Of a stretch of 64,000 bases of DNA, positions 11,013 through 59,355 are shown piece by piece. Location: positions 28,561 to 92,560 of the forward strand of contig JAJEDY010000002.1 in assembly GCA_022821275.1 (NCBI GenBank). Reading direction: 5' to 3'. Each line of letters begins with the position of its first letter. Within the stretch, counting starts at the first letter, position 1. The position numbers and the translations under genes were made by a program. The notes below the pieces were generated by a model. That model was not told the DNA's origin and did not search any database. It worked only from the letters and a program-made list of their open reading frames with translations. This stretch comes from Candidatus Latescibacterota bacterium. GTDB taxonomy: Bacteria; Latescibacterota; UBA2968.

Positions 11013-11045
11013 GTCGCACCTCCTTGAAAAATGGGCAAACTACCA

Positions 11046-14578: not shown

Positions 14579-14588
14579 AAAAAAACCT

Positions 14589-17500
14589 CTACACCATCCC
14601 TCTCACCTGCTCCAATTTATCGTACAATCGCTTTGGCGACACCTTTTGCGCCGTACCGAGTTCCTGTGCAAACACCGACACCCGAAACTCCTCGACCATC
14701 CACCGCAACGCCTGCACTGCATCGCGCTTCTCCCCCGTCAATTCCGAATCCATCAATTCATCCACCGCGTCTTGAAAGGGTTGAACCTGCTCGGCCTTTT
14801 GTCGGTCCTTCATCGGATCGAGCATCGCGCGTTCGGCCCGTATCGCAATCGCCTTCAAAAACCGACTCAAATGCAACACCTGATCATAAGGCGTCTGTCG
14901 CAAAAAATCCGGCGGCATCAAACGCGCGAGATCCGCCTCCATCTCGGGATATCCACCGCGCAACAGACGGATTTCCCGGTGCGTTTCAAACAACGACTCC
15001 ATCGCCTGAATCAACTGCGGCGCCAGATGCTGCAAATACAACCGCGCCTGTTGAACGCGCGATTCAAAGCGCTCGCGCGTTATGGGAAACGCCGCATCTC
15101 GCGTGAACAGATGTGCCATTAAATTTGCGTACGCACCCTCGCGCAAAGCCTCGCGCGCCCCCTCAAACTGCTTCAAATCGCCCAAAGACCGCTTCAACGC
15201 CCGCATCTCATCCCGCATTTCGCGCTCGCACAACCGCATCCAACCCGCCTGAGTCTCGCGTTCCGCTTCGTCGGCACGCTTAAACAAACACACCTCCACG
15301 CGATCCCCTTCGCGCTTCAACCCCACATAGCCAAACACCGGCATCCCGCCGGCTTGCATCACCTCCACGCGCTCGGGCAATTCACCCAGCGCCTGCCCCG
15401 TCACATCCCGCCGCGCCACCTGCTTCTGCGCCCGCAACCACGCATCGGACTGCACATCTTCTTCGCGCGCATCTAACTGATCGCGCAACACGCGCAAATC
15501 CCGCGCTGCCACAATCGCCTTCTCTTTCTCGTCTCGAACTTCCACGCGCATCTGCAAATGCTCGGGCAAATCGCGCACATTCCAATCGCTTTGAGAAATC
15601 TCAATACCGTATGTACCCAGAATATGAGCAGACAGCGAATCCAAAAACGCGCCGTGCGTTGGCTGCAAAGCCGCGGCAATCTCGCGCGCCTTATCCGGCA
15701 CGGGAACAAACCGCTTGCGAATACTTTTTGGAAGCCCGCGCAACAAATGCGTAATCTTCTCCTCCAACAACCCCGGCACCAGCCAGTCCAGCACCTCCGG
15801 CTGTACAAAATGCACCAGCTTGTAGGGCAACTCCAGTGTCACGCCATCCCGATCCTGCCCGGGCCGATACGCATAAGAAAGCGGCACCTCTTCGCCATCC
15901 ACCTCCAAAAAATTGGGAAACGCATCCCGATCAAAATCCACCTGCTCGCCCGCCAGATGCTTCTCGGACATCAGCAAAAAATCCGCGCCCTTTCTCTTAA
16001 TCAGGCGATTCAAATCGTGCGTAGAAGATATATCCTCCAATCGCTCGGCATAAAACCGATACGCAGCCTCGTCCAGATCCAGAAATTGCATCAAACGCTG
16101 TTGCATCTGCCATGTTTCCACGCGCGCGCGCAAATCCCGATTCTGAGCCACAAATTCATAGGGCAACGCCACCTCATCATTCACCAGCGCCCCGCGGATA
16201 AAAATCTCCGTCGCAGCACTGGCATCTATACCGCCATACCCCACGCGCTTTTGCCCCACCTGCAAACCGTGCAGCGTCAAAGTCTCAGTCGCCAGCACCC
16301 GCCCCGATCGCGCGCTGTAAAACGGCTCCTTATAAGACGCCCGGCACAAATGCGCGCCCAACGCCACCAGCCAGGACGGCTGTATGCGAGCCACAGTGCG
16401 CGCAAACAAACGCGACGTCTCCACCACTTCCGCAGCCACCACCCAACCGGGCGTACTCTTTTTCTCTTCCTCTCTTCCCTCTTTCCGCTGAAACAGGCCA
16501 GATCCGGGAAACAACATCACATCGCGACCGCGCGCTGCGCGATACATATTGCCTTCCTTCTTTTGCGCCACATTGCCCAACAACCCACTCACCACCGACC
16601 GATGAATCGCATCGTATCCCGCATCGTCCCGATTCATCCGAAAACTGCCCATCTCGCGCAAAGTGTGTCGAATCTGCATATAAATATCGCGCCATTCGCG
16701 CATGCGATTAAAAGACAAAAAGTGCTGCTTGCAAAACTTCCGCATCTGGCTCTGCGTTCTCAATTTCTCAAACGTATCGTGATACGCCTTCCAGATATTC
16801 AGCAACGCGATAAAATCCGACTCCCCATCTACAAATCGCCGATGCTCCTGATCTGCCGCTTTCTCTTGCTCGAGCGGCCGCACGCGCGGATCCTGAATGC
16901 TGATTGCCGACGCAATAACCAGCACCTCGCGCAAAGCGCGTTCTCGTTGCGCTTGCAAAATCATCCGCGAGACCGTCGGCGCAAGCGGCAAACGCGCCAT
17001 ACCGCGTCCCAGCGGCGTCAAACGCTTGTGATCATCAATCGCGCCCAACGCCCTCAACACATCAAATCCCCCCTGAATCGCCTGAGAACGGGGGGGATCA
17101 ATAAATGGAAACGTCTCGACATCGCCCAGCCGCAGCGCAATCATCCGCAAAATGACCTCAGCCAAATCCGACCGCTGAATCTCGGGCTGCGTGTACTCTG
17201 GCCGCGCGAGAAAACTCTTCTCATCGTACAGACGAATACACACCCCATTTTGCACGCGCCCACACCGCCCTGCCCGCTGCCTGGCACTGCTTTGAGAAAT
17301 ATCTTCTACCGGTAGCCGATGCGTCTGATTGCGCGGATTGTGCCGGCTGATCCGCGCCAGGCCCGTATCGATCACATACCGAATACCCGGAATCGTAATC
17401 GACGTCTCCGCAATATTCGTCGCCACCACAATGCGCCGATACCTCTGCTTGTAAAACACCTTCTGCTGATCGCCCGCTGTCAACCGCCCAAACAGTGGCA

Positions 17501-40233: not shown

Positions 40234-41655
40234 ATGCCCAACCTGCTCTACATCTTCGCCGATCAACTCCGCCCGCAATCCTGTGGCTATATGGGCGACA
40301 ACCGCGCCCACACCCCCAATATCGACCGCCTATCATCTGAAGGCATCAGCTTTGTCAATGCCACCTCGGTCTATCCCGTGTGCAGCCCGCATCGCGCATC
40401 CCTCTTTACGGGCTGTTATCCCACCACCAATGGCTACGTGATGAACGAATTGAGCGCCCGCACCGATTTGCCAACGCTTGCCGGCACATTGACGCGGAAC
40501 GGCATAAATTGTGCCTACATCGGCAAATGGCACATTTACGCAACCGAAGGCAAAGTTTATAAACAGGCCGGCGATTTTCACAAGAATCCCGCCAATCAAT
40601 TCGTGCCCCCAGGCCCGCACCGATTGGGATTTGACCACTATTGGGCAGCCTACAACTTCAACCACAGCTATTACAAGGGATTTTATTACGAAGACAAATT
40701 TGAACGCATCGACATTCCTGCTTATGAACCCGATGCCATGACCGACCTCGCCATCTCCTATCTCGAAAACGCATCCGAAAATCCAAATCCCTTCGCACTC
40801 TTCGTCTCTTATGGCACACCTCATCAGCCCTGGAACTGGGACAATGTCCCCGAAGAATGGGGTATGCACTTCAAAGACATGGCCTTTGATCTGCCGCCAA
40901 ATTACCGGGACGGATCGGGAGAATACTGGCACGCATGGTTCGACCGCGATTGGTGGATGAAATCCGTCAAACCCAACCTCGTTGAATGGCAGCAAATCTA
41001 TGCCGCTATGACGGCCAACCTCGACTGGAACGTGGGCCGAATTTTAGACGCGATAGACAGATTCAACCTCGCGCACGACACGCTCGTCGTCTTCACATCA
41101 GACCACGGCGAAATGTTTGGCGCACACGGTCGCGTTCAGAAAAATATCTACTATGAAGAAGCCGCGCGCGTCCCCTTTCTCATGCGCTGGCCCAATCGCA
41201 TCGCACCCAACTCTGAAAGCGATGCCTGCCTCAACACGCCCGATATCATGCCCACGCTACTCTCACTTATAGACGTCGATATCCCCGATGGTATCGATGG
41301 ATTTGACCTTTCGCATTGCGTATTTGGTCAGCGTGGAGACGAACCCGAAGCCGCATTCTTACAGGGCATGGGTCCCAGTGTCGATTGGGACGATGGCTTT
41401 GAATGGCGCGCTTTGCGCGACAAACAATATACCTACGCCATTGAAAACCAGGGAGAATCCCTCTACAATCACTGCGAAGACCCTCTGCAATTGCACAATC
41501 TCGCCAGCAACCCCGACCACGCCAGAACAATCCAGCATTACCGCGACCAGATCCGGGCGCGCATGGACGCATTAAACGACACCTTTGAACCCATTACCTT
41601 TTACCGCGATCACTGGATCGAAAATGGCCGCGTTATCAGAGGCGCGCGCGATTGA
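40234..41655 (+). CDS. Formylglycine-dependent sulfatase, no signal peptide
   Basis: MPNLLYIFADQLR...SVYPVCSPHRASLFTGCYP (C-x-P-x-R). Confidence 0.85.
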   Translation: MPNLLYIFADQLRPQSCGYMGDNRAHTPNIDRLSSEGISFVNATSVYPVCSPHRASLFTGCYPTTNGYVMNELSARTDLPTLAGTLTRNGINCAYIGKWHIYATEGKVYKQAGDFHKNPANQFVPPGPHRLGFDHYWAAYNFNHSYYKGFYYEDKFERIDIPAYEPDAMTDLAISYLENASENPNPFALFVSYGTPHQPWNWDNVPEEWGMHFKDMAFDLPPNYRDGSGEYWHAWFDRDWWMKSVKPNLVEWQQIYAAMTANLDWNVGRILDAIDRFNLAHDTLVVFTSDHGEMFGAHGRVQKNIYYEEAARVPFLMRWPNRIAPNSESDACLNTPDIMPTLLSLIDVDIPDGIDGFDLSHCVFGQRGDEPEAAFLQGMGPSVDWDDGFEWRALRDKQYTYAIENQGESLYNHCEDPLQLHNLASNPDHARTIQHYRDQIRARMDALNDTFEPITFYRDHWIENGRVIRGARD

Positions 41656-41667
41656 GGAGATCACCCA

Positions 41668-43098
41668 TTGACATCAAAACGTCCCAACATTCTCTGGATC
41701 TGCACAGATCAACAACGCTACGACACCATCCATGCCCTCGGCAATGAACACATCCAGACACCCAACCTCGACCGCCTCTGCGCCGAAGGCGTCGCATTCA
41801 CACATGCCCACTGCCAGAGCGCGATATGCACGCCCAGTCGTTCCAGCTTTCTCACCGGGCTTTATCCCAGCACCGTACACGGCAACCGCAATGGCAATGC
41901 CTATTTCCCGGCAAATGAACGCGTACAACTCATCACCAAACGCCTCGCAGATGTCGGATACGATTGCGGTTTATCGGGCAAACTCCACCTCGCCTCTGCC
42001 TGGAACGGTGAAGAACAACGCGTTGACGATGGATATCGCAAATTCTGGTATAGCCACTCACACAATCAGGGCATCGGTATTGGCAACCAGTACACCGACT
42101 GGGTCACCGAACAGGGCATAGACCTCGGCGACGTCTTCCAAAGAAAAAAAGACGGCACATACGGCAACTATCGCCCCGACATGAATCCCCAACACCACCA
42201 GACCACCTGGTGTGCGGACCGCGCCATTGAATTTATCGAATCCCCCCACGACGGCCCCTATCTCATGAGCGTCAACCCCTTTGACCCGCACGGACCTTTT
42301 GACGCCCCCGACACGCACAAATACAATCCCGCCAGTCTGCCGCCGCCGCTTTTTTGCGAAAACGACCTGCAAACACAAACGCGACTCAAACGCTTTTTTG
42401 CTGACAAAGAAGGCAACCCTCCCGGGGACCGCGAACAGCACAACAAAGCGTCATACTACGGCATGATCGCCCTTATCGACGAAAACGTCGGCCGCATGCT
42501 CGATGCACTTGAGCGCACGGGCCAACGCGAAAACACCGTCGTCATCTTCACGAGTGACCACGGCGAAATGCTCGGCGATCACGGCCTCACCGGCAAAGGT
42601 TGTCGCTTCTACGAAGCCCTCGTGCGGGTTCCCCTCATCATCTCGTGGCCCGGCACCTTTCTCCAAGGACACCGCGCAGATGGCCTCACCGCGCTCTTAG
42701 ACATTGCGCCCACTCTCGCCGACCTCGCTGGCATCCCTCTCGAATGGACACACGGCAAATCCCTCATCCCAATACTCACGGGCGAACATCCCGGGCACGC
42801 GCACCACGAATTTGTGCGCTGTGAATACTACGATGTCGTCGATAAATTTGCCCCACACGCCTCCGAAAAACACAAACCCTGTTGGGCGACCATGTTGCGC
42901 AACGACCGCTACAAACTCGTCGTTTACCACGATGCCGACTATGGCGAACTCTACGACCTGCGAGAAGACCCCGATGAATTTCACAACCTCTGGGAAGACC
43001 CATCTCACACAGATCTGAAATACCAGCTCACAAAACAAAATTTCGACCACACCATTATATGCGCCGACCCCGGTCCCCAGCGCATCGGAAGGTATTAA
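41668..43098 (+). CDS. Formylglycine-dependent sulfatase, no signal peptide
   Basis: (TTG)TSKRPNILWICTDQQR...SAICTPSRSSFLTGLYP. GAGGAG RBS. Confidence 0.85.
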   Translation: MTSKRPNILWICTDQQRYDTIHALGNEHIQTPNLDRLCAEGVAFTHAHCQSAICTPSRSSFLTGLYPSTVHGNRNGNAYFPANERVQLITKRLADVGYDCGLSGKLHLASAWNGEEQRVDDGYRKFWYSHSHNQGIGIGNQYTDWVTEQGIDLGDVFQRKKDGTYGNYRPDMNPQHHQTTWCADRAIEFIESPHDGPYLMSVNPFDPHGPFDAPDTHKYNPASLPPPLFCENDLQTQTRLKRFFADKEGNPPGDREQHNKASYYGMIALIDENVGRMLDALERTGQRENTVVIFTSDHGEMLGDHGLTGKGCRFYEALVRVPLIISWPGTFLQGHRADGLTALLDIAPTLADLAGIPLEWTHGKSLIPILTGEHPGHAHHEFVRCEYYDVVDKFAPHASEKHKPCWATMLRNDRYKLVVYHDADYGELYDLREDPDEFHNLWEDPSHTDLKYQLTKQNFDHTIICADPGPQRIGRY

Positions 43099-43129
43099 CA
43101 CGAGCCAGCGTTTCAATGGAGAGCGCAAC

Positions 43130-43897
43130 ATGAAATTCAAAACACCGTTAGACGTCAGACTCGCTTGCAGAGCCAACGAACTCGAAGGCTTCGCCTCCCG
43201 CGCCCTGCCCGGCTACCTGTGTGTCAACGTCGCCTTTCTGGACACAGACTACGCCGACGATTTCGAGGCATTCTGTCGCGCCAACCCGAAACCCTGCCCG
43301 CTGATCGCTAAAATGGAACCCGGCCAAACGGACTGCCCCAAGTATGCACGCGCCCTCGACATCCGAACCGACCTGGGTTCATACGACATCGTACGCGATG
43401 GCGAAGTCACCGAACAGCGACAGGACATCGTAGATCTGTTCGACGACCGAACCGTTACCTTTCTGATCGGATCGAGCGTCTCCTTTGACGGCCTCCTGAC
43501 CGAGAAAGGCTACCCCGCCGCATTCGGACCGACCATCCAACTCACGTCGCTCCCGTGCGAAACAGTCGGACCCTTCTCGGGCAACATGGCCGTCACCATC
43601 CGCTCATTCGATTCGGCCATGATCGACGATGTATGGGAGTTCACCAGCCACTTCCCCGGATGTCACGGCGCCCCAATCGGAAAAAACAATGCGGATGAAC
43701 TTGGCATCGAAGAACTGAACGTCAACATGGACGGTCACACGTTTGAAGTACCCGAAGGAACGGACCGCTTGTATTGGGCTTGCGGCATCACACCCCGCAT
43801 TGTCGCCGAGCAGGCCAGGCTCCCGTTCATGATATCCTACACCCCTGGCCACGCAATGATCACCGACATTCCGACAGAGAGCCTGTACCAGGCCTGA
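43130..43897 (+). CDS. DUF1445/putative hydro-lyase (D-glutamate cyclase-like) family protein, tentative
   Basis: YLCVNVAFLDTDYADDFEAFCRANPKPCPLIAKMEPGQ resembles the family block (ANLVILP...A.DFL.FCQRNPKPCPLL). Size ~255 aa fits. Confidence 0.5.
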   Translation: MKFKTPLDVRLACRANELEGFASRALPGYLCVNVAFLDTDYADDFEAFCRANPKPCPLIAKMEPGQTDCPKYARALDIRTDLGSYDIVRDGEVTEQRQDIVDLFDDRTVTFLIGSSVSFDGLLTEKGYPAAFGPTIQLTSLPCETVGPFSGNMAVTIRSFDSAMIDDVWEFTSHFPGCHGAPIGKNNADELGIEELNVNMDGHTFEVPEGTDRLYWACGITPRIVAEQARLPFMISYTPGHAMITDIPTESLYQA

Positions 43898-43956
43898 CCT
43901 GGATCTCGAAACACCCAGTTCATACCCCGGTCCCAAACGCATAGGAAGATATTAGC

Positions 43957-45333
43957 ATGAACCAGCGACCCAACATCTTGCTCATCATGAGCGACGAACA
44001 CGATCCCGCAGTCACCGGCTGTTACGGTCACCCCCATATCGAAACGCCACACCTGGATCGCCTCGCATCCGAAGGCACCACCTTTGACAACGCCTATACT
44101 GCCTGCCCGATATGCGTACCGGCGCGCATGTCCTTTATGACCGGACAATACGTCCACCAGATCGGCACCTATGACAACGGCTCGCCTCTCGCGGGAACAA
44201 TCCCCACAATGGGCAGCTATCTCGAAGCCGCTGGCTACGAAACCGCAGTCTGTGGTCGCACCCACTTCATAGGACCCGAACGCCTGCACGGCTTTGGCGT
44301 GCGACTCATGGACGACGCCGAAAAATGGAAACACTGGAGTATGAGTGCCCCCTCGCGCACACCCGACAACCGGCGTGGGAGCAACAGCCACGTCACCGAA
44401 TGCGGTCCCGGCGAAAACTGGCAAATCGACTACGACAGCACAGCCACCGACCTCTCCGAACGCTTCCTCAAATCCCGCGCGCAATACCCCGACCGTCCCT
44501 TCTTCCTCTACACCGGCTTCATGAACCCCCACTTCCCACTTCTGTGTCCGCGGGAATACTTCGACCGCTACTATCCCGACCGCGTCGCCCTGCCACACAC
44601 GAGAACCGAACCCTGTGACACCCAACACCCCTCTATACAGCAACTCCGATACTGGCTGCGCAATGAAGAGCCCCTGAGCGACGACATCTCCACCACTGCA
44701 ACCGCTGCTTACTACGGCCTCATCTCTTTCACGGACGACCTCATTGGTCGCCTGCTCGACATTATCGATAACTCACCCCTGCGCGACAACACCGTCGTCA
44801 TCTACGTCAGCGACCACGGCGAAATGGGTGGACACCACGGCATATGGCAAAAACAATGTTTCTACGAGCACTCCGTGCGCGTCCCCATGATCATTCGCCA
44901 TCCAAACGCCGAGGGCAACCAGCGCATCGCCGCAGGAGCCAACCTCATCGACATCCTCCCCACCCTTCTCGACCTCGCCGAACAGGACCCCGCGCCACTA
45001 CCCGGCAGCAGCCTCCGCCCCGCCATCCTCGGTCATCCCTTCCCCGACCGCCCCATCTTCAGCGAATACCATGCCCTCGGTGCTCTAACTGGCGGCTTCA
45101 TGATTAAAAAAGGCGACTGGAAATACATCCACTACGTCGGCCTTCCCGACCAATTATTCAACGTCGCCAACGACCCCGATGAAATTGAGGACCGCGCCGA
45201 CGATCCCACCTGTGCCGACATCCTCTCCGATCTGCGCGCCGACCTCCACAACATCGTCAACCCCGAAGAAATTGATCAACGCGCCAAAGCAAATCAAAAA
45301 ATCAAAGGCATTAACAGAGCGGCCAGGGGTTAG
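43957..45333 (+). CDS. Formylglycine-dependent sulfatase, no signal peptide
   Basis: MNQRPNILLIMSDEHD...ACPICVPARMSFMTGQY (C-V-P-A-R). Confidence 0.8.
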   Translation: MNQRPNILLIMSDEHDPAVTGCYGHPHIETPHLDRLASEGTTFDNAYTACPICVPARMSFMTGQYVHQIGTYDNGSPLAGTIPTMGSYLEAAGYETAVCGRTHFIGPERLHGFGVRLMDDAEKWKHWSMSAPSRTPDNRRGSNSHVTECGPGENWQIDYDSTATDLSERFLKSRAQYPDRPFFLYTGFMNPHFPLLCPREYFDRYYPDRVALPHTRTEPCDTQHPSIQQLRYWLRNEEPLSDDISTTATAAYYGLISFTDDLIGRLLDIIDNSPLRDNTVVIYVSDHGEMGGHHGIWQKQCFYEHSVRVPMIIRHPNAEGNQRIAAGANLIDILPTLLDLAEQDPAPLPGSSLRPAILGHPFPDRPIFSEYHALGALTGGFMIKKGDWKYIHYVGLPDQLFNVANDPDEIEDRADDPTCADILSDLRADLHNIVNPEEIDQRAKANQKIKGINRAARG

Positions 45334-49731: not shown

Positions 49732-49760
49732 CAAAACCTCCTTGCCTGAAAAACACTTGA

Positions 49761-49781
49761 GAATTAGGAATTAAGAATTGC
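49761..49781. repeat. Three tandem GAATTNN heptads (gaattag gaattaa gaattgc), 35-55 nt upstream of the yifB start
   Basis: Seen directly. The same heptad family and the exact 13-mer GGAATTAAGAATT recur at 55761-55797. Confidence 0.5.
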
Positions 49782-50075
49782 CCCGCCACCCGGATAAACG
49801 TGCGACGGTTTCAACTCTTTATTCGCATTGAATGAAGTCCTAAAATCAGGCAAGGAGCGTGCCAGAACCGATCAGATCATAACTTGTTGTTATAGAAACA
49901 AATACGTAATACCAAAGCAAGTGTGCGTTGAACGATGTGTTCACAATGGGTGGTTTGGATAGAACAAAATGTGCAAAGGAAAGAGCAGGGCGCGAGGGTT
50001 TCACATAAAGACACGAAGACACAAAGAAAGGCAAAGAAGGGGCTGGAGACTTGAGGCTGGGGCTGGGCGGACTGA

Positions 50076-53000
50076 CTACTCATAAAAAAACAAACTCTCT
50101 CGTTCTCGACAAAATTCGTAAAACGCCTTGAAACATCGGTTGGCTTTTAATGCGTCCTCTGATTGTGGAATGGCAGAGAAAAATGCCCGGCTACCCACCA
50201 CAATCAACTTTTGTCTGGCGCGTGTGATCGCCACATTAAAGCGATTGGGATTGTTCAAAAATGGACTGGTGACATAGTCGGGATCGGATGTGGTGAAAGC
50301 ATACAAAATGACATCGCGTTCCGCGCCCTGAACGCGTTCTACCGTATCGATCAAGGGCAATTTGGCATTGGCATCGCCCAGTCGCTTTGCAAGGCTGTCA
50401 GCGGTGGCGTTATTTTGTGCGCGGTGGGGAGAAATCAGAGCGATTTGATCGGCATCCAAACCGTGTTCGGCGATCAACCGATGGGCGAGTTGGGTTGTGA
50501 TCTCGATTTCTTCATCGGATTTCTGGTGGTGACCGCGGTGATCTACGATGAGGAGTACGACCGGTTTTGCCGGGTCGAGAACGCGATCTAACAGATCGCG
50601 GTGGTCGGTGTGTTGCAGCGCGAGGCGGTTTCGCGCATTGCCAGCGTCTGCGCGAAGTTCGCCATCATACCACATGTGACTGGGAAAAGAGCACAAGTCT
50701 TCGTTCATTCGATACGTGCGATCCAGGCGGACGCGGTGGGCAGAGTCGTATTGACTGAGCAGATAAGACAGCGCGGAATGGTGTGTGCCATTTTCCTCCT
50801 TGCGATCTGACAGGACAATGGGTGGCAATTGTTTGGTGTCTCCTGCAAACAGGAAATTCCCCTTGCCATAGAGCAAGCTCAACAGGGCCTGGGGAATGAG
50901 CATCTGAGATGCCTCATCGAATACAACCCAATCAAACACCTGTGGGAAAGTTCCCTTGTGACCTTCAAAAAGCTGATAGAGGCCAAATCCCGTGGCACCC
51001 AAAATCGCATAAGAAGACTCTGCAAGTGTTTCCACATCCTCTAAGCGTTCTACCCCGCGCTCTGTCAAATCCCACCGTCCCAATTTGAAGCATCGTGCGG
51101 GAAAGCCTTGCAAGCCGTGTTGTTCCACGAGCGCGACCACTTTGGCGAGCACCTGGTCAATGGCCTGATGCGTCAACGCGCTAACGGCAATCCGAAACGG
51201 CCTGCCCTCCTCTTGAGCATGCAGGATCAATGCAATGAGTATCCAACCCAACAAGTGCGTTTTGCCCGTTCCAGGCGGCCCTTCAATCAGGCTCAAGCGA
51301 TGTGTAAAAGGCAATGATAATGCCTGTTGTTGCGTCTCATTGAGTCCTGCTATTGCGCCAAATCCGCGCATCCAATTTTGCACCCATCTCAACGCATCGG
51401 GTTCTCGCGCCGCCTGCCAGTTGCCGGACAGAAGTTGTGACAGGGGATGCGCGCGGTCTTCCGAAAAAACGGTCTGAACAGCGTGAACCAGCCGAGGGCC
51501 ATTCCAATCGGTCAAGTCCTCTTCCAGAGAATACATAAGCTTCGGATTTAAGGCCAATCGCCCCTGCCGAGATTGTACCCATAAGTGCTCTGCGCTGTAA
51601 TCTGTAAGGATGACGGGCAAACCGTTTTGTACATCTGACAGGCCAATGGGCGCGAGTTTGAGAAAATCGCCCGCGCGGAATTTTGAGAGGCCGGTTTCTG
51701 GTACAATTTGAAATTCGTAGAGAAAACGGCCTTCGCGGTCAAGCGTGGTTTTTCGAAAACGGATGGGGCCCAGGGCGCGAAAGCGTTCCACGCGCTCAGA
51801 CAGGGGAAGGGCTTGTACGGCGAGCACGTCTTCTTCGTGGAGCCGCCGCTCCTCGGACAGAAAATTCAAATAGGCCGTTTGTGTGCTCTGCATATCATCT
51901 ACCGCGGGATCCCATTCGCCCTTTTCCCACGCGCTCGTCAAGTGCGAAGACACCCATTGCCACAGCGATATTTGCAAGCGCAATACGGTGTTGAGATATT
52001 CGACCATTTTTTTTTCTTGTATCCCTTCGCCATCATCAAAATGAAACAGACTTTGCGGCTCATTGAGTTCGGCATTGAGACCCAACAGGCGGTTGAGTGC
52101 GAAAAGCGTGGGATTGCCCGGCATGGGAAAATCGAATTGCGAAGCAATCAGCTTTTGTAAATCTGTGCGGTGGTTGCGATGGGGCAAAAACAAAAAAGAC
52201 AGGTCTTCTGATCCCTCGCACCAATCCTCAAAAGTCTGCCAGCAGCGCGTTCCAAAATGAAAAACATGTGGCCCTCGTCCGCCTTTGATACCTCGATTCC
52301 AGACGGACAAAAAACGCGCCGTGAAATCCCGCAACGCCTCTGGCAACTCGCCCTCTGATGCGACTTCGAGGATCTGGCTCTCGACCACCGTTTTCCCCTG
52401 CAGGGCGCGCCAACCTATCACGCGTGGGTGTCCCGAAACGGAGTCTTCTGCGATGTGTATGAAAATGGCTGTGGATAAATTACTCGGATAAGACCGCGTT
52501 TGTTCTTCCTTCAGACCGATTTTATTTTCTTGTAGCGCGGCGAGTTGGCCCGAAAGTTGTGTTTTCTGGTGTGGGCTGAAAAGATCGTCCCCGGAAACGG
52601 AAACAGATTCAAACCACGCATGGGCAGATGCGATGGTTTTGAGATCGCATTGGCGAAACTTTTGCAGCGCACCCGCGCTCAAATGCGGCACAAGCTGAAT
52701 ATCCTCTTGAAGTGCATCCCGATAACACGCCTCAAAATTGGGGCACGTCGTACAGTGGGTTTGGAGGTGATAACGCGCGCGGGCTGGGGCGCGTTGCAAT
52801 ATGCTGTTCATATTTCGAAACAGCGTGGGCAGTGCCGCCAGGTAGGGTTCGAGATCAAAAATGTGCGGTTCGGGCGTTTTGTCATGCCGAGAAGAGCGCA
52901 GCATCAAGAACCCCGAAGATGCCACGCACATGGGCAACTCGTGTTGCGCGATCACGCGGTCGAGTATATAGGCGTAAAATGCAACCTGCCACTTCTGTGT

Positions 53001-55745
53001 CTCGTAGGGCCTGCGGCTGTTTTTGATATCGCCCACCTGCAACACGACGCCGCGGTCTTCTTTTGAAATGCGGATGAGATCGGGAATGCCGATGCCATCT
53101 ACATGGCTCATCCAGTGGTCTTGTTGCCCCAAAACAGATGGCTGGATCAGAACGGCTTGAAACAAAAATGTCGATTGATCGGAGATTGTGTCTATGTCTT
53201 TCAACAGCGCGAGCGTTTTTTCAAACCGCGATTTGAGGGAAAGTCGCCTGCCCGTGTGGTCGCATGCCATCACTTCGCGCAAAACATTGACCTTCCGAAT
53301 GCGATTCAACACCTGTTTTTCGTGTAGATTTCCCCGTTCCATCCGAAGCGCGTTCAAGTCTGTATCGCTATCTCGCCATTGGGTTTGTTCAGCGGGTACA
53401 AAATTGAGGGCCAACCAGCGTTCACATTGATGGTGCAAAAAATACGCGCCCACCATTGTACCCGTAAGTGACCGCGGGCGATACTGCAGATCGGAGGTCT
53501 GTTCCGCGTGTCGGTCCGCAGGCCACCGCTGTTTTTCCCATGCGAGCAGATCGGTTTGTATTTTTGTATCGAGATAAATGGGGTGAGATTCGATCTCATA
53601 AATAGTTTCCACGAGCAGGGCGGGATCGCCAGACGCGATTTCTGAAGGGTGTTTCAGGTAGTGCTGGAAGGTTTTGGCAACGCGCGGATCAAAGAGGAAA
53701 TCCGTTACTTCTTCGACCAACAGAGGGCGGGGCAAGACCTCACAAAAGGCATTGAGAGGAAACAGGCTGTACAGGGATTCCAGGTGTTCTTTCATCCAGT
53801 GGGCAAAATCTTCTCGGTCTTGCGGGAGAGGGAGCGCTTGAAAATTGACCCAATGAGAACAGTCGATACCGATACTGTCTGAAGTCACCGTAAAATCTTT
53901 CAGATCGCCATACTCGCGTTCAATGATCCACTGTAACACGAGATTGCCCACAGAACCGAGATAGGTGCGATAGCGATACAGGCCGCCCAAACTGCGTTCA
54001 ACTTCAATGCTATTGTGCAAAACAACCGTGCGCTTCAGACTTCTCGCCGCATCGTTGAGCAATTTTCGCGTGCGGGAAAACAGGCCCAACGCGCTTTTTT
54101 CAGTATCCTTATGAAGAATATCTCGAACCGATTGTGCGACTTCATAAGACACCCGAAATCCCGCACCCAGCCAGAAAAGCTCTTTCTCGTCTATTCGATC
54201 CGTCGGTTGGGCAATCACTCTTTTGCGTTCACCCGTATCAATATTCAAAACGCATAATCGCTTGCCCGTCAGTTGCACGCGGTCACCGAGTTCCAATTGT
54301 CGAACGATGAATTTGGGCAAATCTGCAATGGCTTCGCCCGCAAATTCCAGCACATAATCCTCTTCGGTCTCGGGGAAATTGCTCCAAATACGCCGTTCCA
54401 AAAAATAATCGCGATAGCGTCGTCCCCCCTTAAAAAGACCCGTGACGTGATCTTTTCGCAACCACTGTTGCCGCGCCAAGGCCTCAAACAAATGGGCGAT
54501 CATGTTCCGCTGATCGGGAAACAAATCGCAAAGAGCAGACTGCGTGATGGTTTTCTTTTCGTACAAGCAGGAAAGCATTTGCTGGACGAGAACGCTGGGC
54601 AGAGTTTTGGGTTGCGGTGTTTCAATATGGCCGCGGCGCGCCATGTTCAGCATGCCCAAAAATCTGAGCAATTGCGCCTGTGCATCTGTGCCTCGGCATA
54701 TCCCCCAAAAATGCGTGTGTCCTTCTCGCCGGTTGGACCGCCCAATGCGCTGGAGAAAAGCCGATGTGGCATCCGGCGGTTCGTAGAGCAAGACGCTATC
54801 GACATCGCCGATATCAATGCCGAGTTCAAGTGTACTCGTGGCGATGCAAAGGGCGTGTTCGCGGCGGCGAAAACGGTATTCTACGGCGCGGCGCGTACTG
54901 GCCTTCAGGTTGGAGTAGTGGAGGTCGGTAACGCCTTGAAACGCACCTTGACGCGACAAAAGAGAAAACAGCCGATCACAACATCCTCGGCTGTTGGCAA
55001 ACAACAAAATTTTGCGATCCCCGTAGGTTTCGTAGAGATCGTTTAAGAGCGCGACGAGTTCGACCTCATCGTTTTTGAGGTGGATCAAATGGGGAATGAT
55101 ATCGCGTTGGACGGATTCGATGAGGCATACCGCATCGGGTCGAAACCCAAAAAAACGGGCAACCTCCTCGACATCGGCGAGCGTGGCGGAAAGAGCTATT
55201 TTTTGCAGGGGATGGGCGATGCGGCGTTGCAGGCGCGTGAGCAAATAGGATAATTGCCGGCCACGATACTGGTGAATGAAGGGATGTGCTTCATCGATAA
55301 TGACCGTGCGAATGCGCTGGACAAAATATTTCAAATCCGCATTTGAACTGCCCAAGAGCACGTCAAAAGATTCGGGCGTCGTCAATAACAGATCGGGCAG
55401 TGCCCCGCCTGTCCGTTTGAAATCGCCCGTGCGTATCCCCATTTGCAGGCCGAGTCTATCCTTCAATACAGGTGTGAGACGGCGTTCTAAATCTACGGCC
55501 AGTGCCCGCGTGGGAACCACATAAAGCGCGGTTTGTTGCCGCCCCGATTGAATGACGCGCTCGATGCACGGCGCCAGCACAGCTTCGGTTTTGCCAGAGC
55601 CAGTTGCAGATTGCAAGATCAGATCTCTGCCTTGCAAAATCGGTTCAATGCTTTGCTTTTGAAAGGGATAGAGGTGGGGAAAAGAGCTGTAAAATGCGCG
55701 GTAGGTATTGGGCAGTTGAAGCAGAGGAGAGATGGATTCGGACAT
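50076..55745 (-). CDS. 1,889-aa multidomain protein: Lhr-like SF2 DEAD/DEAH helicase plus Cas4/Dna2-like PD-(D/E)xK nuclease with Fe-S Cys cluster plus Upf1/Dna2-like SF1B helicase
   Basis: aa 48-53 SATGSGKT, 150-153 DEAH, 332-339 QRIGRSNR (SF2). aa 774 Cys, 886-889 GIPD, 906-908 D-I-K, 920-924 Q-x-x-F-Y, 998-1007 C-x2-C-x5-C (nuclease plus Fe-S). aa 1489-1496 GPPGTGKT, 1610-1613 DEAS, 1806-1813 QGAERDVI, 1837-1844 NVAITRAR (SF1B). Single uninterrupted ORF. No SD before the ATG. Confidence 0.8.
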   Translation of the reverse strand: MSESISPLLQLPNTYRAFYSSFPHLYPFQKQSIEPILQGRDLILQSATGSGKTEAVLAPCIERVIQSGRQQTALYVVPTRALAVDLERRLTPVLKDRLGLQMGIRTGDFKRTGGALPDLLLTTPESFDVLLGSSNADLKYFVQRIRTVIIDEAHPFIHQYRGRQLSYLLTRLQRRIAHPLQKIALSATLADVEEVARFFGFRPDAVCLIESVQRDIIPHLIHLKNDEVELVALLNDLYETYGDRKILLFANSRGCCDRLFSLLSRQGAFQGVTDLHYSNLKASTRRAVEYRFRRREHALCIATSTLELGIDIGDVDSVLLYEPPDATSAFLQRIGRSNRREGHTHFWGICRGTDAQAQLLRFLGMLNMARRGHIETPQPKTLPSVLVQQMLSCLYEKKTITQSALCDLFPDQRNMIAHLFEALARQQWLRKDHVTGLFKGGRRYRDYFLERRIWSNFPETEEDYVLEFAGEAIADLPKFIVRQLELGDRVQLTGKRLCVLNIDTGERKRVIAQPTDRIDEKELFWLGAGFRVSYEVAQSVRDILHKDTEKSALGLFSRTRKLLNDAARSLKRTVVLHNSIEVERSLGGLYRYRTYLGSVGNLVLQWIIEREYGDLKDFTVTSDSIGIDCSHWVNFQALPLPQDREDFAHWMKEHLESLYSLFPLNAFCEVLPRPLLVEEVTDFLFDPRVAKTFQHYLKHPSEIASGDPALLVETIYEIESHPIYLDTKIQTDLLAWEKQRWPADRHAEQTSDLQYRPRSLTGTMVGAYFLHHQCERWLALNFVPAEQTQWRDSDTDLNALRMERGNLHEKQVLNRIRKVNVLREVMACDHTGRRLSLKSRFEKTLALLKDIDTISDQSTFLFQAVLIQPSVLGQQDHWMSHVDGIGIPDLIRISKEDRGVVLQVGDIKNSRRPYETQKWQVAFYAYILDRVIAQHELPMCVASSGFLMLRSSRHDKTPEPHIFDLEPYLAALPTLFRNMNSILQRAPARARYHLQTHCTTCPNFEACYRDALQEDIQLVPHLSAGALQKFRQCDLKTIASAHAWFESVSVSGDDLFSPHQKTQLSGQLAALQENKIGLKEEQTRSYPSNLSTAIFIHIAEDSVSGHPRVIGWRALQGKTVVESQILEVASEGELPEALRDFTARFLSVWNRGIKGGRGPHVFHFGTRCWQTFEDWCEGSEDLSFLFLPHRNHRTDLQKLIASQFDFPMPGNPTLFALNRLLGLNAELNEPQSLFHFDDGEGIQEKKMVEYLNTVLRLQISLWQWVSSHLTSAWEKGEWDPAVDDMQSTQTAYLNFLSEERRLHEEDVLAVQALPLSERVERFRALGPIRFRKTTLDREGRFLYEFQIVPETGLSKFRAGDFLKLAPIGLSDVQNGLPVILTDYSAEHLWVQSRQGRLALNPKLMYSLEEDLTDWNGPRLVHAVQTVFSEDRAHPLSQLLSGNWQAAREPDALRWVQNWMRGFGAIAGLNETQQQALSLPFTHRLSLIEGPPGTGKTHLLGWILIALILHAQEEGRPFRIAVSALTHQAIDQVLAKVVALVEQHGLQGFPARCFKLGRWDLTERGVERLEDVETLAESSYAILGATGFGLYQLFEGHKGTFPQVFDWVVFDEASQMLIPQALLSLLYGKGNFLFAGDTKQLPPIVLSDRKEENGTHHSALSYLLSQYDSAHRVRLDRTYRMNEDLCSFPSHMWYDGELRADAGNARNRLALQHTDHRDLLDRVLDPAKPVVLLIVDHRGHHQKSDEEIEITTQLAHRLIAEHGLDADQIALISPHRAQNNATADSLAKRLGDANAKLPLIDTVERVQGAERDVILYAFTTSDPDYVTSPFLNNPNRFNVAITRARQKLIVVGSRAFFSAIPQSEDALKANRCFKAFYEFCRERESLFFYE

Positions 55746-55760
55746 GATAGCTATAAATGC

Positions 55761-55795
55761 GAATTAAAAATTGGGAATTGGGAATTAAGAATTAA
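55761..55795. repeat. Five tandem heptads (gaattaa aaattgg gaattgg gaattaa gaattaa), 16-50 nt upstream of the big helicase-nuclease gene start
   Basis: Seen directly. On the coding (minus) strand it reads TTAATTC TTAATTC CCAATTC CCAATTT TTAATTC then GCATTTATAGCTATC-ATG. Confidence 0.5.
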
Positions 55796-55843
55796 GGGTC
55801 GGGAACGGTGCGGGCCGCAATGATAATCGCTATTCCTGTCGTC

Positions 55844-55868
55844 ACGCCTGCAGGTCTTAAGCAGGCGT
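55844..55868. promoter_or_regulatory. Perfect 8-bp-stem palindrome/hairpin ACGCCTGC-N9-GCAGGCGT between ATPase gene C and the big gene
   Basis: About 20 nt downstream of the gene C stop. No U-run follows on the transcribed strand, so it reads as an operator or RNA-stability/processing element rather than an intrinsic terminator. Confidence 0.35.
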
Positions 55869-55887
55869 CCAGTACGCTTTATTCGCA

Positions 55888-57105
55888 TTATAAAATTTGA
55901 GCTTGATGGGCGAGGTCCAATTCATCGACCAGACCTTTGAGCCGATAGCGCGTCTCCTGCCCTTGCATGTGCGATAATCGCTGCGCCATTTCGCGCCGCA
56001 CAGCGGCCTTGAGTGGCTGCCATTGATAGGCTTTAGCATGTAAGTGCATCAACTTCTCGATCAACGCGTGCCATTCTTTCGCAGACAAATCGCGAAGTAG
56101 ATAGTGTTTCATATCTGTCCATGCACTGGCGTAATCTTTCTCAAAATAGGGAATTTCCTCTTCATTGCGGATTCGCACCCGGTCGTATTCTTCTTCATCT
56201 ACTTTTTGAAAAAAGTCGTCTGTAAAAGCAAAAACCGGATAAATAGATGCGGATGGAACGGCGGAGAAAAGCATCTGATCCAAATTCTGATAACTGCGAC
56301 TGCGGCTGGTCACGCGCACTTGAGAAATCGATTCTCCCTCGTCAAACAGCAACACCCATCCGCGGTAGCCCATCAATTGAAAAAGCCGCCCCAATCCGCG
56401 AATTACTTGCAGGTAGGGTTCTGCACCTTTACAGGTAAGCGATGTATCATTGTAAAAATCAACCTGTCGGTATTTGAGTGCGTGGCGCAAGCGATAGACT
56501 GGCACCACATCACCTGCAAGTGCGCGGGAAAGCAGGTAGGGAAATTCGCGCGGGCGGTATGCCGCGTGTTTTTTAGTGCCGCGCTGTCGCTTTGAAAGGG
56601 AGATTGTTTTTTGAGCCATCGCGGTCAGGACAGATCGGAACAGGTGCGGCATTTCCCGCTGCAAAAGCGGCGCGACTCGGGCCTCAAAGTCTTTGCGTGA
56701 TAGGTCACTTGCCCAGGCGCGCCATCGCGCTGCCAACGTGGTGTCTGCATCGGGAAATCTCATAGAGGCGACCAGGGCATGATAGACTCGTCGCATATCG
56801 TGAAAGGGAATCTCTCGAGGATCTAAATTGATGAAGGTGGTTACAAAATTTTCGCGCAGGGCCAGATCGTGGATGTAATTCAAACTGTGCGATTTGCCCT
56901 GCCCATAAGCCCCACAGATGCACAGATGGGTTGGCTTATTTTGGTCGAGTTGTTGAAAATCGCGGTCAATGATTTTTTTTAGATGGCTTTCGCGGGCTGT
57001 GAGCAGACGAACCGCAACAGGATCAAAAAGTCCTTCTCGCAGGCGTTCTATGGCACGCCGTAGGTGGAATGCCGTTTCATTGGATCGCGTTTGGAGAGAG
57101 GTCAT
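55888..57105 (-). CDS. BrxD-like (DUF2791-type) P-loop ATPase, paralog 2
   Basis: Walker A LCICGAYGQGKSHS, Walker B WVLLFDEGES, ~400 aa. Start at the ATG giving MTSLQ (57103-57105), overlapping the upstream gene stop as TGATGA. The first in-frame ATG (57117) is also possible. Confidence 0.55.
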   Translation of the reverse strand: MTSLQTRSNETAFHLRRAIERLREGLFDPVAVRLLTARESHLKKIIDRDFQQLDQNKPTHLCICGAYGQGKSHSLNYIHDLALRENFVTTFINLDPREIPFHDMRRVYHALVASMRFPDADTTLAARWRAWASDLSRKDFEARVAPLLQREMPHLFRSVLTAMAQKTISLSKRQRGTKKHAAYRPREFPYLLSRALAGDVVPVYRLRHALKYRQVDFYNDTSLTCKGAEPYLQVIRGLGRLFQLMGYRGWVLLFDEGESISQVRVTSRSRSYQNLDQMLFSAVPSASIYPVFAFTDDFFQKVDEEEYDRVRIRNEEEIPYFEKDYASAWTDMKHYLLRDLSAKEWHALIEKLMHLHAKAYQWQPLKAAVRREMAQRLSHMQGQETRYRLKGLVDELDLAHQAQIL

Positions 57106-58394
57106 CAGGCATCCCATGTCGGTTGAAGTTGTTCAACTTTTTCCTGCTCCATTTCTCGCTGGCTGACCACGAGTTGCTCGGCCATATCCATATCTTCGTC
57201 TGGCAGCACACCTTGCTCGGCCATGTCGAGTATGCGAATGACCTGCTTGATATAGAGCCGGACCTCGCTTAAAAGCCCCATGCGCTTTTGAGCGACACAC
57301 ATTTTGTTTAACAAATCTTCGCCGACATGTTCCTGGGCATCCCATCGGTAGGACAATTCGTGAATGCGTTTCAGGCAAAGCCCCAGATTGACCAGTTCGC
57401 TGGTTTCCAAAGGCGTCCTGTGAAGATCAACCAACACGCTGCGGTAATTCAGCCGTTTGCTTTCGCCAATAGAACGCACGCGACTCCACAGCGCGTCGTA
57501 GGACTTAAAACCCTTTTCCGAGAGCGTCACATCGGGAATAATGGACATAAAAATGTGCAAATAAGACGCTTGCTCGGCATTGTCGATCAGTAAGCGGACA
57601 TTTTCATAAGACGCATTGCGAATGGTTGTCGATTGGGCGATTACGGTTTCCAATTCGTCCATCAGCAGTACGAGGCCCTTGTAGTTGAGATGCCGCAAAA
57701 AGACAATGAGCGAGGTCAAAAAGCGTTTGCTATTGGTCTTATCGAGGGCTTCAAAAATCTGGAACGGTTTGAGCTCTCGCTTGCTCACCCGCGCACCTTC
57801 AAACCACTGGTAGAGAATTTCCCGCTGATATGCACGCGCCTCTTCGTCTTCACCTGCTTCAAGCGGTCTGAGGCGATTGTCTGCCAACCCGATCAGCGCA
57901 TTGGCAAAATTGAGATCCATCCCAGAAAGCGCACGCAGGCTTTCCCCCACAGAGAAGAGTTGTTCTTCGAGAGGTGCATCATCTGTCAGATTGGCTTTCA
58001 GATTTTCGACCCAATCATCCACGAATTGGCGGATACCCACGCCTTCAAAAGAACCGCAGAGCTGGCGCGCGATGGTTTGATAGACAATCTCAAATTTGTG
58101 TATGGGCACTTCGCGCGTGAGCACCACAAAAGACACGGCGAACTTTTTTTTAAGCGCGAGGTGCTTGATAACCGACATAAAATGCGTTTTGCCATCGCCA
58201 TAGTCCCCGTTGATAAAGCGAACCTTCGCGCCCCCTTCGGCGATGTAGTTATCCAGGTCTTCTTCGATAAACTTCAACCAGTTCTGACGCCCCACACTAA
58301 AAAAGGGCACGTAATCAATCGGCACGCTGCCTTTGCGGAGATCTTCAATAATGGCCCGCGCCTCAAAGGGTTTGAGCTGATCCAATTGTGTCAT
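57105..58394 (-). CDS. BrxD-like (DUF2791-type) P-loop ATPase, paralog 1
   Basis: Walker A RFINGDYGDGKTHF, Walker B LVLLMDELET, 429 aa. AGGAGAAAGG RBS. Similar domain order and length to the downstream paralog. Confidence 0.55.
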   Translation of the reverse strand: MTQLDQLKPFEARAIIEDLRKGSVPIDYVPFFSVGRQNWLKFIEEDLDNYIAEGGAKVRFINGDYGDGKTHFMSVIKHLALKKKFAVSFVVLTREVPIHKFEIVYQTIARQLCGSFEGVGIRQFVDDWVENLKANLTDDAPLEEQLFSVGESLRALSGMDLNFANALIGLADNRLRPLEAGEDEEARAYQREILYQWFEGARVSKRELKPFQIFEALDKTNSKRFLTSLIVFLRHLNYKGLVLLMDELETVIAQSTTIRNASYENVRLLIDNAEQASYLHIFMSIIPDVTLSEKGFKSYDALWSRVRSIGESKRLNYRSVLVDLHRTPLETSELVNLGLCLKRIHELSYRWDAQEHVGEDLLNKMCVAQKRMGLLSEVRLYIKQVIRILDMAEQGVLPDEDMDMAEQLVVSQREMEQEKVEQLQPTWDA

Positions 58395-58417
58395 GTGTCA
58401 TGTCCTTTCTCCTGCAT

Positions 58418-59251
58418 TTATTCTTGAAAAGCAATGGTGGTAATCTGTCGCCGTTCTCCATCGCTGTCAATCAGCCAAAGGGCCTTGTTCCGCCCCGGCC
58501 TTAGCTGCACGGCATAACCCTCTGACGTACCCCCCGTTCCAGCCTGAAAATAACGCCAAATATCTACGGCGAATTGATCCAGGCTATATCCTCGAAACCG
58601 TCCCTTATCCATGTCCTGAAAAAATGCCCGGCTCTGAAGAGAGAGCACATATTCCAGATATAATTGCTGCATTGCAACAGGCTCCCCCATCTCTCGATCT
58701 TCTTTTTTTAGAATTTCCGCATATACGTCATATAGCTTATCAATAAACACCTGTGGATCATAAGGGCGGTCATAGAGTTGCTGCTTTACCCTGCGGAGAG
58801 CAGTAATGATGCGCTTTGGATCAACGGATTTCAGGGTTTTTTTATTGATCACAGTTTTCCGCTGTGCAAAGTCAACATCTCCCTCTATGCCTTTGAGCAC
58901 CTCAATACGCGGAAAATCGACCTCTATTGGAAGTTCCGCTTCACGCGCCAATGTCGCCAGATCTTCTATAAATTGGATTCGGTATCGCTCCACCTGTTCA
59001 TCCGCATAAGTACGCAATTGATCTAAAAACTCTGCACCCTCCTTTAGTCCCACTTCTTCTTCCACATCCCGCGCCATTTTGGACTTGAGCAATTCGTCGA
59101 GTTGAAAAAAGTCATTCCTCCCGGCACTGCGGATACATTGTTTCACAAAATCGGCCATTCGCTGACGGCGGTTTTGCTGCTGTTGATAGGGCCTGACCAC
59201 GTCCGTCAATTTCTCTTGCATTTGCTCGAGAAATTCTTCTCGATCTACCAT
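58418..59251 (-). CDS. Hypothetical 277-aa protein, first gene of the operon
   Basis: Charged, helical-looking, no recognisable motif. GAAGG RBS. Driven by the predicted promoter at 59299-59327. Confidence 0.5.
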   Translation of the reverse strand: MVDREEFLEQMQEKLTDVVRPYQQQQNRRQRMADFVKQCIRSAGRNDFFQLDELLKSKMARDVEEEVGLKEGAEFLDQLRTYADEQVERYRIQFIEDLATLAREAELPIEVDFPRIEVLKGIEGDVDFAQRKTVINKKTLKSVDPKRIITALRRVKQQLYDRPYDPQVFIDKLYDVYAEILKKEDREMGEPVAMQQLYLEYVLSLQSRAFFQDMDKGRFRGYSLDQFAVDIWRYFQAGTGGTSEGYAVQLRPGRNKALWLIDSDGERRQITTIAFQE

Positions 59252-59298
59252 TTTGATTACCTTCTATTTTGGATGTAAGTGATTTCCGATCGCGTGTA

Positions 59299-59327
59299 AT
59301 TTTATCGCTGTACACAAAATGTGTCAA
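59299..59327 (-). promoter_or_regulatory. Near-consensus sigma70 promoter for the 4-gene operon
   Basis: Minus strand TTGACA(59327-59322)-17 bp-TAAAAT(59304-59299), about 45 nt upstream of the gene A ATG. Confidence 0.45.
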
Positions 59328-59355
59328 GTCGGAAATATCGGCGAAACAAACGCGC

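Follow-up and report, generated by a model that had tools for sequence, protein, structure and literature searches.

Shango, an operon encoding a TerB protein, an ATPase and a DEAD/DEAH helicase, has been shown experimentally to act against phages (10.1101/2022.11.11.516204). Its helicase, SngC, belongs together with BrxHI, DruE and DpdJ to a defence-specific clade of superfamily 2 (SF2) helicases (PMC12278908). BrxD and BrxHI are tightly linked in bacteriophage exclusion (BREX) type 2, where BrxD has been assigned to the AAA+ ATPases of the ORC/Cdc6 type, with a suggested role in loading or activating BrxHI (PMC12839542). Here we compare with these systems a cassette of four genes, A to D, carried on a 64-kb stretch of contig JAJEDY010000002.1 from a Candidatus Latescibacterota bacterium (assembly GCA_022821275.1); this whole stretch is hereafter called the window. 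The cassette is very probably a genuine accessory module of the BrxD/BrxHI type and, judging from sequence relationships, most likely represents a horizontally mobile, unnamed family built on the ATPase-helicase pair of Shango and BREX type 2. Its role is most likely nucleic-acid surveillance directed against mobile elements, whether phages or plasmids, and homology and mobility together make it reasonably probable that the cassette is a defence system.

The original prediction, which was read from the DNA letters, had described four co-directional open reading frames (ORFs) on the minus strand behind a near-consensus promoter. All of these are present, as follows.

Inserted cassette, approximate extent: 49980-59350, minus strand; about 9.4 kb from the sulfatase stop codon to the region upstream of yifB, delimited by alignment with contig L091 at both junctions
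Sigma-70-type promoter TTGACA-17-TAAAAT: 59299-59327, minus strand; upstream of gene A, read directly
Gene A: 58418-59251, minus strand; 277 amino acids (aa), signature protein of the system
Gene B: 57105-58394, minus strand; 429 aa, BrxD/SngB-like P-loop ATPase
Gene C: 55888-57117, minus strand; 409 aa (405 aa from an alternative ATG at 57105), second, divergent BrxD-like ATPase
Gene D: 50076-55745, minus strand; 1,889 aa, helicase-nuclease-helicase

The promoter agrees with the consensus at 11 of 12 positions and is the sole 11/12 site, and the only strong promoter-like site, within 49.6-59.45 kb, a region that holds fewer promoter-like sites than shuffled sequence. The gap between A and B measures 23 nt, exactly as predicted, and contains an AGGAG ribosome-binding site. 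B and C overlap by 13 nt when counted from the first ATG of C (409 aa), or by 1 nt from the alternative ATG, which shares one base with the stop codon of B (TGATG) and gives a C protein of 405 aa. This overlap implies that the two genes are translationally coupled; the predicted coupling therefore stands, but not its literal ATGA form.

Compared with Shango, the cassette has the same kind of arrangement, in which a BrxD/DUF2791-type ATPase lies beside a helicase of the BrxHI/SngC clade and a third, non-enzymatic-looking gene comes first in a single operon. Two of the three components, the SngB-type ATPase and the SngC-type helicase, are thus common to both, and remote members of the cassette family, whose helicase is only about 700 aa long, are also similar to Shango in overall size. 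However, the first gene of the cassette is not TerB, so that the SngA required in Shango is missing. Further, duplication of the ATPase has given two ancient paralogues where Shango has one SngB, and the helicase of the window and of most close relatives continues, in a single fused protein, into a Cas4/Dna2 nuclease, a DnaQ-like domain and a superfamily 1B (SF1B) helicase.

BREX type 2 resembles the cassette in that BrxD and BrxHI are the top defence profiles for B/C and for the D N-terminus, and in that a BrxHI-type helicase directly follows the BrxD-like B and C. Shango is as close to the cassette as BREX type 2 is. The difference from the latter lies in the remaining genes: PglX, PglZ, BrxC/PglY and PglW are absent from the 64-kb window and are not consistently found in 76 other loci. 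The prediction that no BREX core genes lie nearby is in line with a PADLOC scan of the 41 ORFs in the rest of the window, which detected no PglX, PglZ, BrxC, BrxA, BrxB or PglW; similarly, the most frequent families of 145 flanking ORFs from other loci included no BREX core gene. A degenerate BREX type 2 locus was rejected on these grounds, as core genes are absent from the window and none recurs in the other loci. Because no methyltransferase accompanies the cassette, epigenetic self-marking as in BREX type 2 is not expected. The arrangement had also been predicted to match no named system. No published description of the A-B-C-D architecture was found in the full-text literature, but the prediction did not mention Shango, the closest named relative.

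The ATPase pair and its partner protein

Both B and C exceed the gathering threshold (22.2 bits) of the Pfam family BrxC_BrxD (PF10923, formerly DUF2791), B with an E-value of 1.9e-54 (185.6 bits) and C with 1.4e-23 (84 bits). The best PADLOC defence model for each is BrxD (B, 1.5e-42; C, 6.7e-18), followed by SngB (B, 1.6e-32; C, 9.5e-11), and their homologues carry the names 'DUF2791 family P-loop domain-containing protein' or 'BREX system ATP-binding domain-containing protein'. Against the NCBIfam BREX_BrxD equivalog model (NF033438), B scores 142.8 bits and C 64.3 bits, both under the cut-off of 350. By these profile scores B and C are family-level relatives of BrxD, not equivalogs. The two proteins align with each other over their full length at 23% identity (E=1e-13), and B-type and C-type copies are distinct even in the remote loci L082 and L087; as judged by alignment, they are ancient paralogues. 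Pfam, PADLOC and the B-C alignment thus all agree with the earlier description of B and C as paralogous BrxD/DUF2791-like ATPases. Walker A (GxxGxGKT) and Walker B (DE) of B are invariant in 74/74 sequences, and the Walker A and B motifs of C in 58/58.

Gene A has no match in Pfam, NCBIfam or PADLOC and none in the PDB by sequence, and PADLOC-DB v2 holds no model for it. An AlphaFold2 model (predicted local distance difference test score, pLDDT, 86) consists of a helical hairpin (aa 2-104), a small beta-sheet and an alpha/beta C-terminal part that, in this model, may be winged-helix-like. Fold searches returned only weak similarities of the winged-helix type (ORC, Cdc6, Cdt1, Stn1, MukE, JetA/B). 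We considered and rejected gene A as a divergent TerB/SngA protein: neither A nor 72 relatives matched SngA/TerB hidden Markov models in PADLOC, A itself matched none in Pfam, hhalign of the A family against the TerB-N protein of a Shango-type plasmid locus gave a probability of 0.2%, and no TerB fold match was obtained. The close homologues of A number 470, all annotated as hypothetical (60-93% identity), and are found in Latescibacterota, cable bacteria and many other Desulfobacterota. A profile of A searched against 1.84 billion representatives retrieved 370 clusters (50% identity) at E<=1e-3; the majority are full-length proteins, 260-300 aa long.

Domain composition of protein D

Profile searches confirmed, at family level, the predicted make-up of D as an Lhr-like helicase joined to a Cas4/Dna2 nuclease and a Upf1/Dna2 helicase. 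The three named domains are present; a fourth, DnaQ-like domain had been overlooked. The parts of D are listed below.

D aa 1-700: 53646-55745, minus strand; Lhr/BrxHI/SngC-type SF2 (DExH) helicase with C-terminal accessory domains
D aa ~760-1020: 52686-53468, minus strand; Cas4/Dna2/AddB-type PD-(D/E)xK nuclease with a four-cysteine iron-sulfur (Fe-S) signature
D aa ~1075-1240: 52026-52523, minus strand; DnaQ/DEDDh-like domain (RNase H fold)
D aa ~1244-1410: 51516-52016, minus strand; helical stalk and beta-barrel, like domain 1B of Upf1/IGHMBP2/Dna2-type helicases
D aa ~1460-1889: 50076-51368, minus strand; SF1B (Dna2/Upf1-type) helicase core

The PADLOC BrxHI model (PDLC02503) aligns end to end with the N-terminus of D (1.9e-87, model positions 22-687 of 698), and aa 22-622 match SngC (7.3e-73). 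Pfam recognises DEAD and Helicase_C in this part, SF2 motifs I, II, III and VI are kept in 27/27 orthologues, and among solved structures mycobacterial Lhr (5V9X and 7LHL, 2e-33) comes closest. This SngC-type helicase is fused to ~1,190 further residues. The first of the added domains is a predicted Fe-S PD-(D/E)xK nuclease, in which both the D...(D/E)xK...QxxxY motif and the C...CxxCx5C ligands are present. Its fold matches include Cas4, Dna2, MGME1 and ExoV; the PADLOC Cas4 model gives 1.8e-5, and Pfam PDDEXK_1 gives 2.2e-4 at 21.7 bits, just below the 22-bit cut-off. The catalytic and cluster residues that had been singled out (D889, K908, C998, C1001 and C1007) were numbered correctly and are kept in 26-27 of 27 full-length orthologues, and the motif set including C774 and Q920..Y924 in 23-27 of 27.

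The DnaQ-like domain resembles ERI1, RNase T and REXO2 in fold but is detected by no Pfam model. Since the Exo I DxE motif is not recognisable, its activity is uncertain, and the domain may have lost its exonuclease function and serve to bind nucleic acids. The SF1B core matches Pfam AAA_11 (2.2e-22) and AAA_12 (4.4e-30), as well as the PADLOC models DpdJ (8e-50) and MkoA (3e-45); its best solved relative is mouse DNA2 (5EAN, 9.7e-27), and Walker A, DEASQ and motifs V and VI are kept in 27/27 orthologues.

From aa ~760 to 1889, D follows the order of Dna2, with an Fe-S PD-(D/E)xK nuclease, a stalk and beta-barrel, and an SF1B helicase. It also resembles RecBCD, AddAB and AdnAB in possessing two motors of opposite family polarity and a RecB/Cas4-type nuclease. 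In comparison with all of these, D combines everything in one polypeptide, including an Lhr-type SF2 motor, and it differs from Dna2 in the extra inserted DnaQ-like domain and in being encoded with dedicated AAA+ partners. Nhi is a looser parallel; the PADLOC Nhi model barely matches D (3e-3). Mycobacterial Lhr and the ligase-associated DExH helicases have a homologous helicase core and homologous downstream domains; however, D falls far under the equivalog cut-offs and has neither a metallophosphoesterase (MPE) nuclease nor a ligase partner.

These relationships bear on what D does. Lhr and DNA2, its nearest solved relatives, are repair enzymes, and the second-best profile for the D N-terminus is a ligase-associated DNA-damage-response DEXH helicase (TIGR04121, 3e-59). 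D could accordingly be pictured as the end-processing part, similar to RecBCD/AddAB or to Dna2, of an accessory machine for repair or end resection rather than immunity, with A-B-C loading or regulating it where DNA is broken or forks have stalled. We consider this unlikely. The housekeeping and repair helicase models of NCBIfam stay far under their cut-offs on D (200 vs 850 bits), while BrxHI aligns end to end, and outside BREX type 2 and Shango no BrxD-like partners are known. Membership of D in a housekeeping helicase family, which the original prediction had named as a result that would speak against it, is not what the searches returned, since BrxHI outscores every housekeeping model.

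The C-terminal half of D invites a different comparison. It matches MkoA of Mokosh (3e-45), and also Upf1, IGHMBP2 and Sen1; the DnaQ/RNase H-like fold resembles that of the RNases ERI1, RNase T and REXO2; and mycobacterial Lhr prefers RNA:DNA hybrids. These similarities would fit a Mokosh-like surveillance of RNA or RNA:DNA hybrids, in which the Upf1-type SF1B helicase and the Ski2/Lhr-type helicase act on phage transcripts or R-loops and the substrates degraded by the nuclease and DnaQ-like domain are RNA or hybrids, not duplex DNA. Nevertheless, the best solved match of the SF1B part is DNA2, the class of Fe-S Cas4/AddB/Dna2 nucleases acts on DNA, the DnaQ-like domain has no recognisable DxE motif, and the BREX contexts of BrxHI/SngC are DNA-centred. 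An RNA-directed role is therefore improbable, more so than one in repair.

Distribution, mobility and genomic setting

In the metagenome contig L091, the sulfatase (88% identity) adjoins yifB (87.5%) at a distance of ~290 nt, without the cassette, and contig L093 is similar. This empty site indicates that the cassette is accessory and forms an insertion/deletion polymorphism between relatives. The context of yifB, sulfatase and nth is common only to four Latescibacterota at 92-98% identity (L001-L004), whereas two others at 77% identity (L005 and L006) carry the cassette in a different context. A core-genome block syntenic in all relatives, another outcome named in advance as adverse, is thus not what the empty site and the varying contexts reveal. 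Across 76 loci, 221 flanking ORFs fell into 183 clusters, and hence there is no conserved neighbour.

A total of 80 loci were fetched, of which 54 were informative for D. A-B-C were adjacent in every fetched locus with a long enough contig, mainly in Latescibacterota and Desulfobacterota. D was present in 44 of the 54 informative loci, in full fused form in 31 (one of them upstream of A) and running off the contig in 13, and four further loci apparently had only the N-terminal helicase of ~730 aa. A scan for gene A in one genome per species gave 87 matches among 185,579 species, in several phyla and at 50-93% identity, including SAR324, Nitrospirota, Chlamydiae and Legionellaceae bins. A 3.9-kb contig (L023, JAIWHJ010000256.1) with A-B-C at ~63% identity was also noted in a Promethearchaeota (Asgard) bin of a metagenome-assembled genome; the explanation is either contamination of the bin or transfer into archaea.

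More remote relatives of A (~24-29% identity where measured) are followed by one or more BrxC_BrxD ATPase genes in every readable contig, and where the contig extends (L081, L082-84, L085 and L089) a DEAD/DEAH helicase of 701-715 aa adjoins. The 26.9-kb plasmid pDESTI.01 of Desulfomonile tiedjei (L087, NC_018026.1, record 10215-15641) encodes in order a 279-aa hypothetical protein, two 'BREX system ATP-binding domain-containing' proteins and a 701-aa DEAD/DEAH helicase, with AbiEii/AbiEi, ParA and a PD-(D/E)XK nuclease as neighbours. As the strain is cultured, this copy is a convenient experimental entry point. The unfused helicase of these remote relatives implies that the ancestral unit was A, B, C and a BrxHI-like helicase; on this comparison, the branch that includes the window is one in which the BrxHI-like helicase gained a Dna2-like nuclease-helicase tail.

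The plasmid copy beside AbiE, the empty site in a relative, the varying flanks and a tyrosine integrase after C in L036 all support mobility. The copy on a small plasmid beside a toxin-antitoxin pair and ParA, the loci with no D or with the N-terminal helicase only, and the variable genomic contexts could also be read as signs of a selfish or addiction module, or of a decaying remnant, that gives the host no benefit and persists by mobility or by competing with mobile elements. Such an explanation is highly unlikely. The ORFs are intact and the catalytic motifs are kept across phyla, which points to strong purifying selection; the flanking ORFs show no consistent linkage of the cassette to a transposase or integrase; and nothing related occurs in phage or viral collections. 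A phage or viral origin was rejected for the same reason, as gene A has no relatives in IMG/VR contigs or GenBank phages.

Defence-type genes of the toxin-antitoxin or Abi kind do occur near the cassette in other loci, though in small numbers. Among the 145 flanking ORFs were PIN (five), AAA_21 (three), AriA (three) and AbiLi (three). In an Electrothrix contig (L018, 10250-17460), ~7 kb separate C from D and encode an Eco57I-type methyltransferase, a GmrSD_N (DUF262) protein and a RelA/SpoT-domain protein; this insert is a defence mini-island nested inside the operon.

Several observations weigh against a defence role. The neighbours are mostly housekeeping genes, and enrichment in defence islands is weak, because the top PADLOC matches among neighbours (mad3, mad8 and PDC-S01) appear at a similar rate among the window's own housekeeping ORFs (ABC transporters, helicases). 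No integrase or transposase lies inside or beside the cassette in the window, and five related Latescibacterota (the window and L001-L004) carry the cassette at the same position, which makes it stabler than many defence islands. Across phyla, identity is 60-70% for A, B and the helicase, an unusually high conservation for immune genes. Six of the 54 informative loci have A-B-C with no D within 6-10 kb: L009, L013, L015 and L021 from Electrothrix, and L036 and L051 from the Eth-SRB1 group. Enzymes of the Lhr and Dna2 types, moreover, also serve in repair.

Part of this evidence would suit the repair machine considered above. With endonuclease III (nth) 2.6 kb away among mostly housekeeping neighbours, and with highly conserved sequences that occupy a single site in five related species, the cassette might be retained for genome maintenance in slow-growing sediment bacteria. 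We regard this as doubtful, because the cassette is very rare and patchily distributed (87 matches among 185,579 species), a relative has an empty site, one plasmid copy lies beside AbiE, and one locus has defence genes nested within it. Surveillance against mobile elements is the role that we favour.

Two further features of the locus concern small intergenic repeats.

C-D spacer: 55746-55887, minus strand; 142 nt, a copy of a small dispersed intergenic repeat with the order AATGCGAATAAAG ... hairpin ... AATTC heptads
Repeat copies: 55761-55889 and 49755-49829, minus strand; both start with AATGCGAATAAAG, followed by a variable core and AATTC-type heptads at the end

The length of the spacer, its inverted repeat and its five heptads, YYAATT(C/T), had all been predicted correctly. 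The inverted repeat is, however, not a contiguous perfect palindrome but a hairpin with an 8-bp stem and a 9-nt loop (ACGCCTGC-9 nt-GCAGGCGT). Palindrome and heptads are missing in relatives that are 96-98% identical; the gap between C and D is ~10 nt in L003 and L004, and L001 and L002 have a different spacer of 33 nt. Each repeat copy lies directly upstream of a start codon, that of D and that of yifB respectively, and the yifB-side copy (49755-49829) is missing from the empty-site contig. Since the spacer does not occur in close relatives and its ends recur upstream of yifB, it is not a component of the system but a lineage-specific repeat insertion unrelated to it. An operator or internal regulatory site formed by the palindrome and AATTC heptads was ruled out, as these are not conserved and belong to the dispersed repeat, which may be an element of this Latescibacterota lineage resembling miniature inverted-repeat transposable elements (MITEs) or repetitive extragenic palindromic (REP) sequences.

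Some observations concern the surroundings of the cassette. The sulfatase-yifB spacer of L091 (2650-2800) contains short repeats of the GTCGAAA type and a strong terminator hairpin, GCGCCGATTCC...GGAATCGGCGC, followed by a T-run; in the window, this stretch is replaced by the cassette. Composition is an ambiguous guide to a foreign origin: coding-strand guanine-cytosine (GC) skew is about -0.04 in C and D and +0.16 to +0.34 in the adjacent genes, but other genes of the window are also near zero. The plus-strand ORFs at 40234-45333 have a strongly negative coding-strand GC skew, unlike other genes. The window also has five ORFs with Pfam Sulfatase/SGSH_C domains and several xylose-isomerase-like triosephosphate isomerase (TIM) barrels, a content that fits the genome of a polysaccharide-degrading Latescibacterota member.

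Possible mechanism and implications

A loader combined with bipolar degradation is a possible mechanism, which we put forward tentatively. The analysis demonstrates gene content, family membership, conserved motifs and synteny, and the accessory nature of the cassette, while complex formation, a loading role, the substrate, the polarity and the defence phenotype are inferred. In this scheme, B and C, with their intact Walker motifs, would form a hetero-oligomer with protein A, which may serve as a coiled-coil, winged-helix-like adaptor or sensor. The A-B-C complex would recognise a feature of foreign or aberrant DNA and spend ATP to load or release D. The latter would be a single-chain two-motor enzyme in which the motors flank the Fe-S nuclease and the DnaQ-like domain. 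Motors of the Lhr family translocate 3'->5' and SF1B motors of the Dna2/Upf1 family 5'->3'. On a duplex end or fork, those of D would each follow a different strand yet advance the same way overall, in the manner of RecBCD, AddAB and AdnAB, while the nuclease would break down the DNA. As there is no modification gene, discrimination between self and non-self would be structural (ends, damage or replication intermediates) rather than epigenetic.

A more specific and speculative version, to which we attach little weight, is that a heteromeric ORC/Cdc6-type B-C pair and a Cdt1-like winged-helix adaptor A might load a one-chain bipolar helicase-nuclease onto foreign DNA, which would be discriminated by DNA structure. 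It seems similarly unlikely, though conceivable, that this loading mirrors helicase loading in eukaryotes and archaea and that D is a one-chain functional analogue of RecBCD/AddAB.

The BrxD-BrxHI/SngB-SngC pair is among the least understood modules of phage defence. The cassette represents a separate and sizeable family around this pair (370 clusters of A), in which the ATPase occurs twice and a new partner protein is added. The chemistry of D can be read from its sequence: an Fe-S nuclease accompanies two motors whose families move in opposite directions, and a modification gene is absent. Its branch would offer a tractable model for the control of Lhr-like helicases by BrxD-like ATPases, which would bear on both Shango and BREX type 2. 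Enzymologists, too, would take an interest in a single polypeptide predicted to have the properties of RecBCD/AddAB. For the little-studied sediment lineages in which it is found, namely Latescibacterota, cable bacteria and other Desulfobacterota, the cassette adds to the repertoire of defence-type genes.

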